Shown here: in pieces, positions 13,893 through 61,601 of the stretch
Layout of the letters: each line of letters opens with the position of its first letter
Position numbering within the stretch: the stretch's first letter is position 1
Assembly: GCF_006345805.1 (NCBI RefSeq)
Contig: NC_042998.1
Coordinates: forward strand, 88,412,001 to 88,476,000
Length of the DNA stretch: 64,000 bases
Direction: 5' to 3'
DNA from: Octopus sinensis
Lineage: Eukaryota
Notes under the pieces: generated by a model
Told to the model about the DNA's origin: nothing
Seen by the model: the letters and a program-made list of their open reading frames with translations, nothing else
Database searches by the model: none
Translations under genes and position numbers: made by a program

Positions 13893-14051
13893 AGTTACTT
13901 ATATGACCGGTCATAGAGTAACCAGTGGTTTCGCATCAATAAATAGAAGACTCGTCAGATGTCCATTGGTGTCTAACGAGTCATCTAATAGGCTAAGCAC
14001 TTTATAGATGCGAAGCCAATGGTCACTCTATGGGCGGTCATATAAGTAACT
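13893..14051. mobile_element. palindromic PLE-derived element with two head-to-head hammerhead motifs
   Basis: The arms are reverse complements; the minus arm reads CTGACGA-stem II-GAAA-CCACTGG-TT and the plus arm CTAACGA-(CATCTA/TAGATG)-GAAG-CCAATGG-TC-ACTCT. Confidence 0.7.
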
Positions 14052-15525
14052 TTATGTAGATATGTGTATATATATATAGAAAGAAAAATAGTAAGAAAGA
14101 AAGGGAAAGAAGAAAAGAAAAAAGGGAAAGAAATATGTGTAAATGTGTAAATGAGCTCATATAATTAAGTGTGGGTATTATGTTTCACAAAACTGTTAAA
14201 GTTCGGTAATATTTTCTCAATCTTTTCAAATAGCTAAATGTTTATTATTTGAAGGCATAGGTCGTTTTCATGACTTCAAATTTAAAACATCTTGATCTAC
14301 TAGAGTATCCGATGAAGGTGAATAGAAACAATACTGCTAATAAGACTCATTCAATAAAATGTAACTTTCATTACAGTTCCATTATAAGCTAGCACTGATA
14401 ACCTATTACAAAAATCATTAAATCACAAGCCTTATGTCACTAGCCTGGCATCAATTTTATAAAATTCTGAAGACCAATATAATTTACAAATTGACATGTA
14501 ACTATGAAAATTATAAACTTGGTAGCTTTAAATAACATTCCATTGAACACTTTCTTGTTGGTTGATCATACATGGACAGTAATGAGCTATTGTGGTACAT
14601 CACATCGCTCAATGTAAAAATAAAACTATTTAGAAAAAACATTATTTGATAATACAACTATCTCATATAAAATAGTTTAAATAACGGATGATTAATTATA
14701 AAATGTATAAAGAAAATAGTTGATTAATTATAAAGCTTCACATAACGTATAACTCGACACAAAGATAGCATGTCCTAATATCAAACTAATACCACACACG
14801 CTATAGCTTAACTATTTCCTTACTGCTGAAAGAACCCTGACGCCAATGGTCAGAAGTCTTGAAGTTCGGTGAGAACGAATGCGAAATAGACACAACATCG
14901 TTCTTACAAACTAATGAGGGAACATCTATGTGGTCCCATATTTGCTAGAAATACTAGTCAAATTGCATTCAAATAACAAACGACCGTATTTTAAATTAAT
15001 ACATTTTAATTAACGTAATCCTAGATACCGAGAAAAAGTGGAATGATCATGGCTAAGGTATCTTTAATAATGGGTCCGTTCGGTCACAATTGATCAAGGA
15101 CTAAACAAAAACATCGTTTGTCCAAGACAATGTGAAAGCTTCTATGTGATAAATTAACCTGCAAGAAATAGCAACCAAATACCTTTCAAATGACATTCTA
15201 CAATCTTAAAAAAAGAGGAGATACATTGTATGATGCAGTCCCAGGTACACCATCCTAGAAAACAGAAGTGGCCACGGCTTGAGTAATAACTACGTCGATA
15301 CTTCCCAGTTACGCTTTCATTTCATGCATACATACAAAGTTACATATATACATATATATGTGTGTGTGTGTGTGTATATATATATATATACATATGTATA
15401 TAGTTTATAGATTAGAGACAGGTATTCTCTATATAGAATACACTTCGTAGTGCTCAAGAGATTTGAACTTCAGCAGGTAGTAAATGTAAGGACAAGCAAG
15501 TTAGGCAAGTCAATATACAAAAAAT

Positions 15526-15740
15526 ATTCTTTTCTATTCTAGGCACAAGGCCCGAAATTTTGGTGGAGGGGGCCAGTCGATTAGATCGACACCAGTGTGC
15601 AACTGGTACTTAGTTTATCGACACAGAAAGGATGAAAGGCAAAGTCGACCTCGGCGGAATTTGAACTCAGAACTTAACGGCAGACGAAATACCGCTACGC
15701 ATTTCGCCCGGCGTGCTAACGTTTCTGCCAGCTCGCCGCC
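15526..15740 (-). mobile_element. tRNA-derived SINE family B with 15-bp TSD
   Basis: Reverse complement of GGCGGCGAGCTGGCAGAAACGTTAGCACGCCGGGCG...GACTTTGCCTTTCATCCTTTC...; flanked by ATATACAAAAAATAT / ATATACACAAAATAT. Confidence 0.85.
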
Positions 15741-15799
15741 ATATACACAAAATATAAAGTACATTTAATACAAAAAATGTGTATATGTATACATATAAA

Positions 15800-16222
15800 A
15801 AAAGTCCGACTTATGGTTCAGAGTTCAGTCCCACTATGTGGCACCTCCTTAGGCAAGTATCCTTCTACTATAACTTCCGACCAACCCAAAACTTGTGGAC
15901 AGAAACTGAAAGACTGTCGTATATATATATATATATATATATATTATATATATATATATATATATATAATATATATATATATATATATATATATATATAT
16001 ATACGTGTGTGTGTGTCTTTGTGCCTGTGTTTGTTCCCCACCATCGCTCGCCAACCGTTATTGGTGTCTATGTAACTTAGCGGTTCAGCAAACGAGAACC
16101 GGTGAAATAAATACCAGGCTTTAAAAACCAGTAAGTACTGGGGTCGATTTCTTCGCCTAAAATTCCTCAATGCAGTGCCCCAGCATGACCGCAGTCTAAT
16201 GATTGAAACAAACAAAAGAAGG
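15800..16222 (+). mobile_element. SINE family A (diverged)
   Basis: Head remnant, internal (TA)n, and tail GCAGTGCCCCAGCATGACCGCAGTCTAATGATTGAAAC. Confidence 0.75.
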
Positions 16223-58342: not shown

Positions 58343-60748
58343 CTAAATAAGGGGAGGTAGTGAGTGATTTTTTCCGGTGTAGGGGAGATAATCGCTTAAA
58401 ATTTTTTTTTCCCTTTTCCTTGTTAATTTCTCTGTCAGTATGTTCGGATGGTTGAGTCTGGGTTTGTACTTTTCAATGAAGAATGTTTCCTTGTTCAGTC
58501 TCATTTGTGTTGATGATCCGAAAGCACATTGGTAAAATGGGAAGATTAAAAATTGTGGCAGTAGTTGCTTTGCGCATTTCTCAATGTGCTCACTAAAAGG
58601 TATCATTCTATATTCTGGGAATGCAATCTGTTCTCGATGCAGTGTGCATCTGCGCCTGAGTGATAGTCCCGTGGAACCCACGTAGTCTTGGTGGCAGCCC
58701 GAGCATTTAATAACATAAATTATGTTTTCAGAGGCACAAGTAAAGTTAGATTTGATCTTAAATTTCTGTCCCTCTTTAAAGAAGAATTCTGATCCTTCCA
58801 ATAGGTTAGGACATGTTGCACAGTTCGATCTACCACATTTTTTTACTTTTGCATCCGTAATTTTAGAAGACAATTTTGCCTTTGTGGAATCTTTTTAAGT
58901 GATTTAGGCTGTTTGTAGCTTTTAATGATTTGGTGTATGTTTAGAATTTCCTTTAATTTTGGGTTTTTATGAAGTATTGGTAAATTCTGGGTGATGATGG
59001 TGAAGGCTTCTTTGTTTCTGGGGTTGTATGTAGATATGTAAGGTAGTATTTTCGGGGAAGGTGTGTTGTTGTGTTGAACTTTTCTTAAAGTTTCTATGTT
59101 GATTTCTGTTGCACGTCTGATCCCATCCTCTATGAGTTGAGCTGGGTAATGTCTGTCAATTAGGGTGTTTTTGAGTTCTTGCAGTCTAAAGTTCCTGGTA
59201 TTTTGTTCTGACACTATTGTGCATATCCTTCTTGCAAGGTTGAAGGGGATGTTTGTTTTAGTGTGTCTTGGGTGGCATGAATTAAAAAGAAGGTATTGTT
59301 TGGCGTCTGTGGCTTTGTAAAAAATGTCTGTTTCTATTTTAAGGTTAATTTTTTTAATTAGTATATCCAAGAACGGGAGCTCCTTTTGGTTGTATTCCAT
59401 TGTGAACTGTATATTTGGGTTATGCTGTTCAATAGGTTTTTAAATTTTAGGAGTTTATCTATGTTTTCATTCCAGAGAATGAAACAATCGTCTAGGAATC
59501 GTTTCCAATTCTCTTTTATGTATTGAGAGAGGGAGTTTCCAAAGATTGATAGAGATTCCTGGTAAATGATTATTTCCATGTATCCCATTGTTAGTTCGCA
59601 ATGACTGGTGCTGCCCTTGTACCCATAGCAATTCCGGATTTTTGACGGTAAAATGTATTGTCAAACATGAAGTGGTTATTGGGTAGGATGAATTCAATTG
59701 ATTTAGTAATGAATTCCTTACTGATCCTTTTTGGTATTTCTTCCGGAAATTGGTCTAACCAGAATTGTATTGCCTCCAGTCCATAATTATGAGGTATACT
59801 GGTATACAAGTTGACTACATCAAATGAAACCAGGATTGTTTCTTCCTTGGTTTTTTTTGGAAGGTGGTTTAACATATCTAAGTCATCTCTGATATGGCTA
59901 TCGATATGTTTAAGGAAGGGTTTCAAGAGGATGTCCATAAGTAGACTTAGTCTGTGTGTTTCACAGGTTGGGCCAGCTACAATGGGTCGTAGTTTTAGGT
60001 CCCCCGGATTAGGTGTGTGTATGTATGTCTTTGGTGATTTTTTAATGGTTTCATTTATAATTTGACTTTTATGAATTTTTGGCAGACCATAGAAAAGGCT
60101 AGGTTTGCATTTAAAGTTTGTTAGGAAATCAATCTCTTTGGTTGTCAGTTCCTTTTCATGGGTTTTAATTAGTGAAGATAGAGTTTTCATTATTTTTTGT
60201 GGGGTGTAGTTGGTAATTTTTTCATAATGTAGGTCTTCATCAAGCAAGGAAATTACAAGATTTCTGTAGTATGATGTATCCATTATTACAACTGCATTTC
60301 CCTTGTCCGCTTCCTTAATGGTTGTATCTTCATCATTTTGGAGTTCTATCAGTTCTTTCCATTGTGTAGTGTTAAAATTTGGGTTAGCTTTCTGTTTATG
60401 TACAGTATGGTAGGGGAAGTTCTCAATGTGGTTAAAGAATTCGTCAAGATCTTTATTTCTTCCTCTGTGTGGGATGTGGTCACTTTTGTTCTTGACTAGT
60501 GATTCATCTTCAGTATTGAAACTGTTTGATGCTTCTGCTAGTCTTAATTTTCTGCAAAATTCTGTTATATTATCCTTGAGTTCATTTAGGTTTGCTCTGC
60601 GTGGAGTTGGTGTAAATTTGAGCCCTTTTGCGAGGATGTCAATTTTTATGTTAGAAAGAGGTTTGGTTGAAAGATTGATTATCTTCGGTTTTTCCTTATT
60701 ACTAGGTTCCAGCCTGTGTCCTGGTGTCCCTGGTCCCTGGCTAAAAAA
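58343..60748 (-). CDS. PLE pol: reverse transcriptase + Cys linker + GIY-YIG endonuclease (three apparent 1-nt frameshifts)
   Basis: IINLS, KGLKFTPTP, EADKGNAVVIMD, YGLPKIHK, LRPIV, SFDVVNLYTSI, GIAMGT, RFLDDCF, LPFLDI, CGRSNCATC, IIYVIKCSGCHQDYVG; no in-frame stops. Confidence 0.9.
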
Positions 60749-61294
60749 TGTTGGGTGTAATTTTGTTTGTATGAGTTGTCTGTGAGGTTGTGTGGTATTT
60801 GGTCGGGGGAGTGGTGGTATTGTTGCCTCCGATCGTTGTGTGTGTGTGGGAATCTATGGTTGTTAATGCTTGTGGTGCGTGTAAAATTTCTGTATGGGGA
60901 ATATTTTTGTTTCGAACTTCTTGTATGTGGGATGTTGCTTGACATAGTGTTTCTTTGCGTTTGTCTTGTGTTTAGTGGGGACCAGTAGTTTTGGTTCATG
61001 GGGTAGTAGTGATTTGTGTGTGGTGTATTTCTTATCCTAGTGTCGTATTGTGCTGTATGGTGGTTGGGTCTGGTATTAGGATGTTGTTGGTTTGTTCTGT
61101 TTTTGGTGTAATTTCTTTCATAGACGCGTCCTCTTTCAGCTAGTTCCCTGTTAGGTCTAGCGTGGTTTGTAAAGGTTGGTTGTGGGTGATTTCTGTTTTT
61201 AGTGTATGGAGGATAGTTGGGGGTTGTTCGTGGGTTGTTAGGTTTTTCTTTTTTATTTATTGTAATTTTCTTAAGGAAGGGATTATTTGTACCC
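60679..61294 (-). CDS. PLE upstream ORF, N/H/T/P/R-rich low complexity, 5'-truncated
   Basis: Open for about 200 codons; overlaps the pol frame; the listed start at 61359 lies in the inverted copy and is not genuine. Confidence 0.6.
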
Positions 61295-61561
61295 AATCTT
61301 CCCATTTTACCAATGTGCTTTCGGATCATCAACACAAATGAGACTGAACAAGGAAACATTCTTCATTGAAAAGTACAAACCCAGACTCAACCATCCGTAC
61401 ATACTGACACAGAGAAATTAACAAGGAAAAGGGAAAAAAAAATTTTTAAGCGATTATCTCTCCCCACACACCGGAAAAAATCACTCACTACCTCCCCTTA
61501 TTTAGAAATCTCCTGGAAATAAAAACAACGATAATTCCATGCAATATAAACATAACGTCAC

Positions 61562-61601
61562 AAGAAATTTGAAAAGCTACACGCGAAAACGGTAATTTCT
61601 T
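61562..61601 (+). ncRNA. second copy of the PLE hammerhead (stem III mutated)
   Basis: Identical to 58247-58286 except ACCGGT>AACGGT. Confidence 0.65.

Follow-up and report, generated by a model that had tools for sequence, protein, structure and literature searches.

Varying 3-8 core pairs in minimal hammerhead motifs of Penelope-like elements in Octopus sinensis

Introduction

The 3-8 pair of the hammerhead ribozyme core has been established by mutagenesis. A window of 64,000 nucleotides of the Octopus sinensis genome, the whole stretch of DNA analyzed here, contains several hammerhead-like motifs that differ at these two positions, and raises the question of whether the pair is conserved as a pair rather than as particular letters in Penelope-like elements (PLEs). 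The pair has been described as stabilizing the catalytic G8 (PMC8495972). U3-A8 occurs in natural hammerheads (Perreault et al. 2011, PMC3088659) and was already reported for PLEs by Cervera & de la Pena 2014 (PMC4209133), where minimal PLE hammerheads are described as cutting poorly even as dimers. In a PLE hammerhead, the double change C3G/G8C partly rescues the cleavage that either single mutation abolishes, insertion in vitro was unaffected by hammerhead mutants, and RNA-seq showed no reads ending at the cut site (Frangieh et al. 2024, PMC11167929).

Results

Hammerhead motifs of the window

All cores quoted in the preliminary description were present in the window:

13958, minus strand: core CUGACGA
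44187 (plus) and 44188 (minus): truncated AUGA core
46312, minus strand: core CCGAUGA
57892, plus strand: core ACGAAUA
58279 (minus) and 61569 (plus): core UUGAAAA

The minimal type-I layout had been assigned to all of these sites. Under a strict descriptor (stem I of at least 3 bp, stem II of at least 2 bp, palindromic stem III) it was recovered at 57892 and 58279, that is, at two cited sites versus a background of 0.1 per block shuffle (maximum of 1 in 60 shuffles), and the remaining sites were damaged. Stem I is disrupted at pair 2 in the 13.95 kb and 46.3 kb copies, the 44.19 kb core is severed at the midpoint of an inverted duplication, and a single C>A change breaks the stem III palindrome at 61.57 kb. 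Inverted duplications contain five of the six cited sites. Several hammerhead copies of the window have decayed, and the motifs themselves are real; apart from the 58.27 kb motif, whose sequence is intact, these copies are dead remnants. An Rfam scan of the window returned no hammerhead family among the 150 listed hits, the strongest of 221, and those listed were exclusively miRNA matches driven by microsatellites. Microsatellites dominated the repeat-finder output on the window.

The sequence contexts, initially regarded as five unrelated ones, are partly related: the 58.27 and 61.57 kb sites lie in a single element, the latter being its inverted pLTR, and the 57.89 and 58.27 kb sites belong to sister PLE families, with upstream protein matches that are mostly 50-65% identical. 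The features of the U3-A8 element are as follows.

58074..61745, minus strand: Penelope-like retrotransposon, frameshifted, with C-terminal GIY-YIG and Cys-rich linker (ends read from the sequence)
59594..60853, minus strand: P0001, ORF piece of 420 aa, N-terminal part of the reverse transcriptase (RT)
58846..59439, minus strand: P0002, ORF piece of 198 aa, RT thumb/linker
58346..58894, minus strand: P0003, ORF piece of 183 aa, Cys-rich linker and GIY-YIG endonuclease
58247..58286, minus strand: U3-A8 minimal hammerhead of the 3' pLTR, intact and passing the strict descriptor
61562..61601, plus strand: U3-A8 motif, inverted-pLTR copy of the same element, stem III palindrome broken

The 5' pLTR of this element is inverted, one of its ends has a tail, and the element sits in (TA)n; the inverted arms (58106-58547 and 61295-61745) are at 94%. 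Its Pfam matches to RVT_1 (E 0.014) and GIY-YIG (E 0.0058) are both under the curated cutoffs, and it is 65-76% identical to P0005, which bears PF00078, PF28514, and PF26215. The intact motif comprises a stem I of 7 bp, the core UUGAAAA, a stem II of 2 bp, GAAA, the palindrome ACCGGU, and A17, with a predicted cut after 58254. It is identical over 101 nt in all 40 scored genome copies (1102 candidates). Protein matches were present at 29 of 30 U3-A8 loci, and U4, G5, A6, A9, G12, A13, A14, the A15.1-U16.1 pair, and H17 were kept in all 30 loci found by similarity.

The sister family with A3-U8 is represented by one copy.

57804..58030, no strand assigned: A3-U8 sister PLE family, 3' end that is inverted and truncated at the 5' side, arms 92%
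57889..57919, plus strand: copy of the A3-U8 hammerhead in which U4C is a rare change and the inversion has cut stem I to 3 bp
57869..57893, minus strand: second arm of this motif, truncated and decayed

The tail of this copy spans about 57981-58030, and its arm at 57893 (minus) imitates a different core. The family has 1249 genome candidates, with the motif about 300 nt behind the GIY-YIG ORF, and its state is AUGAAUA with a stem I of 5-6 bp and C17. A combination of A3-U8 with C4 had been singled out as atypical. It is not the state of the family: none of 28 copies found by similarity has C4, 27 of them read AUGAAUA, and a C4 pattern gave 11 matches in the genome versus 27 in the reversed control. 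Since 27 of the 28 copies have U4, C4 at 57.89 kb is a rare decay; the conserved core letters from U4 through H17 hold in the same proportion (27/28).

The three remaining window families have C3-G8.

46186..46471, minus strand: 3' end of a repeat family whose C3-G8 hammerhead motif is at 46269-46316
44054..44255, no strand assigned: inverted duplication of a C3-G8 hammerhead repeat family, core cut at the centre
13882..14062, no strand assigned: C3-G8 hammerhead family, inverted duplication of old date (70%)

The 46.3 kb motif has the palindrome ACAGCUGU, and this copy combines a U4C change with a broken stem I; its family (2687 genome candidates) reads CUGAUGA in 13 of 15 copies, so that C4 is a minor state. 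At 44.19 kb, half-motifs lie at 44162-44188 (minus) and 44187-44213 (plus), and CCGAYGA is frequent in full copies of that family. The 13.95 kb motif (13920-13958, minus) has a broken stem I and a decayed second arm (13973-14024, plus). Literal C3 and G8 are present in all three families. Their common sequence stops 300-600 nt upstream of the motif; PLE matches occurred at 2 of 60 loci, neither demonstrably linked to the motif, and the 57 of 100 upstream frames submitted to Pfam gave no relevant match. The proposed origin from several PLE families stands for the 57.89 and 58.27 kb families, and no linked PLE ORF was found for the three C3-G8 families.

Genome-wide census of positions 3 and 8

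We then searched the genome with a template of the lineage in which positions 3 and 8 were free (N3-UGA-N-N8-A-G-N6-9-C-GAAA-CCGG-U-H), U4, G5, A6, A9, G10.1-C11.1, GAAA, and CCGG being fixed by construction. The matches were distributed as Y3-R8 (2677), R3-Y8 (1155), R3-R8 (55), and Y3-Y8 (36), versus 1, 1, 0, and 1, respectively, in reversed controls. Purine-pyrimidine opposites thus account for 3,832 of 3,923 matches, with U-A, A-U, and G-C as the paired states. By eye, stem II in most of the 91 mismatch rows matches that of a family already known, and no large mismatch family was found among all 91. There was no C3-G8 match; because a G directly after A9 is demanded, the template is silent on C3-G8 motifs with an extra base. 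As had been anticipated, a search with CUGAnGA only misses the whole lineage. Descriptors of the CUGAnGA or YUGAnRA type overlook more than a thousand of this genome's motifs, so that in some PLE families hammerheads may have been undercounted or wrongly reported as absent.

Among the first 100 of 177 matches to a tight subgroup pattern with R3 and Y8 free, we counted by hand 75 A-U, 21 G-C, 2 A-C, and 2 G-U. For the G3-C8 families, a loose pattern gave no excess (489 versus 485 in the control) and a tighter one gave 78 genome matches versus 0; the latter count is post hoc, since the tighter pattern was chosen after recurring rows had been seen with the loose one. The core letters of these families are set by the pattern; stem I pairing and ORF context are the independent checks. 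Sixty segments of 10 kb, taken without selection, contained 12 motifs (7 C-G, 1 U-A, 2 U·G, and 2 mismatched), too few for new classes, versus 1.15 per shuffle (maximum of 4 in 40). Family states were derived from numerous dispersed copies with unique flanks, and contigs from independent public runs hold the same families, with both the G3-C8 and the A3-U8 letters. The covariation first noticed in the window is real between families and goes beyond that first reading, since it includes a G3-C8 lineage and a second origin of A3-U8.

The pair is not, as had been stated, always Watson-Crick: 11 of the first 100 Y3-R8 matches belong to a U3·G8 subfamily that is fixed and young (6 rows in a 97/97 clade). 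It nests in a U-A subclade that lacks one base at the junction of stem I and the cut site, with either an extra U before position 3 or N17 absent. The U3·G8 and shifted-junction subfamilies were amplified nonetheless, and the youngest family inside the shifted subclade has regained the full junction.

Number of swaps, stems, and element context

The endonuclease tree contains three marked clades, namely, G-C (98/99), U-A (100/100), and A-U (100/97); row L031m1509 was left out because its endonuclease belongs to the adjoining element. In a flank-only DNA tree, a second A3-U8 family sits inside the G-C clade. A single A-U clade was rejected (p-AU 0.00075, in a test whose bootstrap had not settled). 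Rooting the three clades with distant endonucleases gave no clear root and one misplaced outgroup row, again with unsettled bootstrap. The states U-A, A-U twice, and G-C require at least three compensated double changes, and three only were counted as independent.

Stem I, which formed part of no search pattern, had at least 4 bp at 20 of 30 A3-U8 loci, 16 of 30 G3-C8 loci, and 18 of 25 new loci of the R3-Y8 subgroup; offset registers gave at most 1 of 30 and cross-clade pairings 0 of 1800. Two-sided changes occur at all seven of its pairs (16 hand-picked rows). Stem II is weak (1-3 bp, second pair kept in 10 of 16 rows), and stem III is present only as a palindrome. The three stems surround the core in type I order, which supports the view that the putative hammerheads of this lineage are minimal type-I motifs. 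In four intact copies, the strand-swapped dimer folds at -13.3 to -21.1 kcal/mol versus -0.4 to +5.9 kcal/mol for the monomer hammerhead, and in one A3-U8 copy this dimer is the cofold minimum.

In the 355-nt pLTR region, the motif is the sole colinear similarity between clades (6 rows); G5, A6, A9, GAAA, and the A15.1-U16.1 pair are kept where flanks are unalignable. The U-A, A-U, and G-C families all have an RT followed by a C-terminal GIY-YIG, the motif in the 3' pLTR, inverted truncated copies, a one-sided tail, and microsatellite targets. A Cys-rich, Zn-finger-like linker with C-x4-C-x2-C lies between RT and endonuclease in P0003, P0005, and P0006. An endonuclease match of at least 75 aa was found upstream of 43 of 171 motifs, most copies being 5' truncated. 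Inserted DNA copies extend about 180 nt beyond the 3' cut site. A relaxed scan behind distant PLE pieces gave no convincing motif.

Discussion

The observed position, layout, family states, and tree nesting of the motifs show a PLE lineage with a hammerhead motif in its pLTR, in which the 3-8 pair varies by sublineage. We consider it probable that selection keeps the pair and not the letters in an RNA whose predicted self-cleavage is slow and dimer dependent. With thousands of copies carrying a swapped core pair, it is likely that pairing matters more than the letters, cutting being a prediction. In line with known hammerhead chemistry, the 3-8 pair would hold the N8 ribose in place for catalysis with G12; any Watson-Crick pair should therefore keep some activity and a mismatch none. 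Published PLE work and folding suggest that two copies in a tandem transcript would pair via their ACCGGU palindromes and cut after H17, each having taken up a stem I strand of the other. This cut is expected to be slow or incomplete, because the inserted DNA copies run past the 3' cut site. A more far-reaching version, for which we would put the chances slightly below even, is that the lineage dropped C3-G8 and cycled through U-A, A-U twice, and G-C plus U·G, all of them active dimeric ribozymes. If true, hammerhead families with G3-C8 and A3-U8 would be seen here for the first time as natural, amplified states, and would give what in vitro transposition assays have not, namely, direct evolutionary evidence of selection on PLE hammerhead catalysis.

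The fold might instead be kept for a noncatalytic job, such as RNA dimerization, binding of the PLE protein, or placing reverse transcription, with negligible cleavage. Such a role would agree with the dispensability of cleavage for insertion in vitro (PMC11167929), the low activity described for minimal PLE hammerheads (PMC4209133), the success of the U3·G8 and shifted-junction subfamilies, and DNA copies that continue past the cut site. We regard it as unlikely, given that the 3-8 pair is described as stabilizing the catalytic G8 (PMC8495972), that G5, A6, A9, GAAA, and A15.1-U16.1 outlast the alignable flanks, and that the youngest family of the shifted subclade regained its full junction. 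Considerably less plausible is the neutral drift of vestiges, with complementary 3-8 states that a small number of master elements acquired by chance through founder effects. It is true that independent events are few (three), that copy counts mirror few masters rather than independent samples, and that C-G to U-A could come from AT-biased decay; however, every switch gives the exact complement at both positions, transversions included (U-A versus A-U), stem I covaries in parallel, the mismatch rows hold no large family, and the motif persists where flanks are beyond alignment. An artefact of inverted-repeat junctions or of assembly, suggested by the predominance of cited sites in inverted duplications and by the arm that mimics another core, has a negligible chance: at the family level it is refuted by the dispersed copies with unique flanks and by the independent contigs.

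Under the preferred reading of a kept pair with changing letters, the 3-8 mutagenesis has been repeated in nature by one lineage, through three or more compensated double changes. This bears on whether the spread of a PLE requires its hammerhead to cut, since cutting was dispensable in vitro. The G-C and A-U sister subfamilies, which have stems I-III in common, provide matched natural sequences, and the U·G and shifted-junction subfamilies are natural exceptions.

In the literature covered, which did not include Lunse 2017, Przybilski & Hammann 2007, and Arkhipova 2017, we met with no report of A3-U8 or G3-C8 as a natural family state. The metazoan PLE hammerheads of PMC4209133 resemble those described here: they are located in the pLTR behind RT-GIY-YIG, have a short stem I and a palindromic stem III, occur mostly as solo truncated copies, and are predicted to require dimers. 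They also include the U3-A8 variant, which in S. mansoni Cercyon has about 1,300 hits. Besides C3-G8, the cores in Fig. S3 of that article comprise only two with U3-A8 and one with U3·G8, and none with A3 or G3; unlike that set, the present lineage has a stem II of 1-3 bp, no extra base after A9, and no C3-G8. Dimer formation by PLE hammerheads with a short stem III is credited in PMC6765202 to Lunse, Weinberg & Breaker (RNA Biol 14:1499). The natural variants in PMC3088659 include U3-A8, a stem II of 1-2 bp, U4C (viroid), and 2a/2b insertions before position 3 (saltern variants), all with parallels here; those variants are rare and the 3-8 text there names U3-A8 only, whereas in the octopus each of three noncanonical pairs characterizes families whose copies number from tens to thousands. 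The PAc hammerhead of Anolis Poseidon (PMC11167929) also belongs to a PLE with a tail at one end of insertions, and there G3-C8 was an engineered control, whereas here it is natural and amplified. By features rather than by tree, the octopus elements are reminiscent of the Neptune/Nematis clades of EN+ PLEs (Craig et al. 2021, PMC8557442), which have in common with them the C-terminal GIY-YIG, the Cys-rich linker, inverted truncated copies, a tail, and microsatellite targets.

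Hammerhead motifs and retroelements in the window

The window lies in a 2.72-Gb animal assembly (G000:C2:88412001-88476000), has a GC content of 36%, and contains many microsatellites. Every core cited in the preliminary description was located in its sequence. Since single transposon copies decay once inserted, we sought the family states across the genome for each cited site. In the window, two motifs passed the strict descriptor (57892, plus; 58279, minus) versus 0.1 per shuffle. Stem I is disrupted at the 13.95-kb and 46.3-kb sites, the core is interrupted at the center of the inversion at 44.19 kb, and the stem III palindrome is disrupted at 61.57 kb. 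No hammerhead family was among the best 150 of 221 Rfam matches for the window. Judged from sequence, the core-pair variants described below are a real feature, namely, a variant of the known minimal hammerhead of Penelope-like retrotransposons (PLEs). Retroelements in the window include the following.

Retroelements in the window
58.1-61.7 kb, minus: frameshifted Penelope-like element with reverse transcriptase pieces and a GIY-YIG domain, plus a linker of the form C-x4-C-x2-C
4722-5857, minus: decayed LINE-type reverse transcriptase fragment (RVT_1 E value of 7e-23 at 5318-5857)
~61930-63900, plus: second decayed LINE-type reverse transcriptase fragment, judged by eye; no Pfam match in the three frames scanned

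The U3-A8 and A3-U8 families

The Pfam scores of the 58.1- to 61.7-kb element were under the cutoff, and its pieces share 65 to 76% identity with a database protein with PLE-type domains. Its 5' pseudo-LTR (pLTR) is inverted, and the element has a tail on one side and (TA)n flanks; the 61.57-kb motif is the inverted copy of its pLTR, and the 3' pLTR carries an intact U3-A8 motif (letters at core positions 3 and 8) with a 7-bp stem I. All 40 scored copies of this family were identical across 101 nt, indicating that it is young, and PLE protein matches were found at 29 of the 30 U3-A8 loci fetched. In one contig of the public sequencing run X1 that crosses an inverted PLE junction, A>G differences cluster at 58303-58381 in a pattern that resembles editing. 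Further U3-A8 motifs with other stems (CGCG/CATG palindromes, longer stem II) lie outside the lineage studied, which comprises the PLE families with U-A, A-U, and G-C cores.

Further U3-A8 motifs (loci elsewhere in the genome)
L170:1850
L167:302
L223:606
L033:1369
L044:533
L051, ~1945-1970, minus

The form initially considered most atypical, A3-U8 with C4, was not borne out at the family level: of 28 copies of the 57.89-kb family, 27 have the core AUGAAUA and none has C4. The A3-U8 pattern with U4 gave 985 genome matches (278 in the control), and that with C4 gave 11 (27 in the control). The data thus indicate that A3-U8 is real and that C4 is rare decay. The family sits ~300 nt behind an endonuclease mostly 50 to 65% identical to that of the window element, and the two are therefore sister PLE families. 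Their one-sided tails (57981-58030 and 58074-58107) share the short word CCACGTG. Tandem A3-U8 copies occur at L165 (3155, 3699, and 4244; spacing, 544 to 545 nt) and L095 (1501 and 1928; spacing, 427 nt), which is the arrangement required for dimers in cis.

G3-C8 families and genome census

A loose genome search for G3-C8 gave overall no excess over the control, yet contained recurring rows; a tighter pattern, designed post hoc after these were noticed, gave 78 genome matches versus 0 in the control. Stem I reaches 9 bp in these matches, which lie ~200 nt behind a GIY-YIG open reading frame (ORF) 35 to 61% identical to that of the window. Among public-run contigs aligned to one G3-C8 locus, 29 of one run differed at position 3 (G>A) and 31 of the same run at position 8 (C>T), and the one contig of a second run carried both changes. 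Following up these differences revealed a second A3-U8 family, which shares its stems with G3-C8; the first 100 of the 177 matches to this subgroup comprised 75 A-U, 21 G-C, 2 A-C, and 2 G-U (hand count).

With positions 3 and 8 left free, the lineage template matched 2,677 Y3-R8, 1,155 R3-Y8, 55 R3-R8, and 36 Y3-Y8 sequences, counts that mirror a few master elements and are not independent samples. Hand counts of the first 100 rows gave 89 U-A and 11 U·G for Y3-R8 and 94 A-U, 3 G-C, and 3 A-C for R3-Y8. C3-G8 had no genome match in this template; the lineage motifs thus fail a literal C3-G8 definition of the hammerhead and pass one based on 3-8 pairing.

At position 17, the predicted cut-site base, G3-C8 matches genome-wide (e.g., L292:1494-1534) had A in 76 of 78 cases, U in 2, and C in none (hand count), and C17 predominates in the main A3-U8 family; in either group, Watson-Crick mispairing between positions 3 and 17 is avoided. 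In the young U3-A8 family, position 17 is A, and this mispair can form in folding. With one event per clade, the pattern is only a hint.

Stem I pairing and phylogeny

Stem I was excluded from every search pattern and serves as an independent check. It pairs in 20/30 A3-U8 and 16/30 G3-C8 loci versus at most 1/30 in offset registers and 0/1,800 across clades. In 16 hand-picked rows, including three mismatch copies, all seven stem I pairs vary on both sides, and 85.8% are paired versus 27 to 49% in slid controls, on which we relied because relatedness inflates the shuffle test in this set.

In the endonuclease tree (42 rows), three starred clades correspond to U-A, A-U, and G-C, with mismatch copies falling inside them. 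The second A-U family is nested in G-C on a tree built from flanks only, and a single A-U clade was rejected (p-AU, 0.00075), the A-U group having been defined by core state after the flank tree was viewed. Between clades, the hammerhead motif is the sole part of the pLTR that aligns. The lineage requires at least three compensated double changes on a tree with an unplaced root, plus a departure from C-G, the starting state suggested by the published consensus. The central idea of the preliminary description, 3-8 covariation, stands, and within this genome it takes in each of the four possible Watson-Crick pairs.

C3-G8 families of the window

Family cores read CUGAUGA in 13/15 copies (46.3 kb), CUGACGA in 3/6, the remainder being single deviants (13.95 kb), and often CCGAYGA (44.19 kb). 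No linked PLE ORF was found for any of the three, and their inverted arms and one-sided tails are consistent with PLE 3' ends. In the 44162-44213 family (L122-L141), C4 occurs in 6/10 full-core and 3/5 bystander copies and looks subfamily-level; U4C is documented in a viroid (PMC3088659). Stem II has 2 bp with a closing GNRA loop, and 10.1-11.1 is A·G, A·A, or A-U. Most copies of the 46269-46316 family (L102-L121) have an A·A mismatch at 10.1-11.1, and L171 has a retrozyme-like 1,383-nt tandem unit.

Proposed mechanism

It is established that C3 pairing holds G8 in place (PMC8495972) and that the C3-G8 double swap restores part of the cleavage activity (PMC11167929). Predicted monomer folds are unfavorable (-0.4 to +5.9 kcal/mol; five copies), and the four intact copies score -13 to -21 kcal/mol as predicted dimers in which the ACCGGU sequences pair and stem I strands are swapped; tertiary contacts are left out of these energies. 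Tandem pLTR transcripts would be cut slowly after position 17 in a dimer-dependent manner, and clade-specific stem I would block cutting between families. The DNA copy extends ~180 nt beyond the 3' cut site; reverse transcription therefore used RNA uncut there.

Against this model, a U3·G8 state is fixed in one young subfamily, nested in a U3-A8 subclade that has lost one base where stem I meets the cut site; within this subclade, the U3-A8 family of the window regained the full junction. The shortened junction shows either an extra U ahead of position 3 or an absent position 17.

Shortened-junction examples
L396:536-561, minus
L353
L368
L402

Since the U3·G8 and short-junction forms spread, strict catalysis may not always be required. 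According to PMC11167929, PLE insertion in vitro was unaffected by hammerhead mutants, and none of the reads ended at the hammerhead cut site; PMC4209133 reports low cleavage activity even for dimers of PLE hammerheads.

Comparison with known hammerheads

The motif layout is that of the PLE minimal hammerhead, with putative cleavage. Natural U3-A8 (PMC3088659) and U3-A8 in PLEs (PMC4209133) are already published. We found no reports of natural A3-U8 or G3-C8 in the part of the hammerhead and PLE literature that was searched. The alignment in Fig. S3 of PMC4209133, as far as available, contains neither an A3 nor a G3 core, whereas the lineage described here has both.
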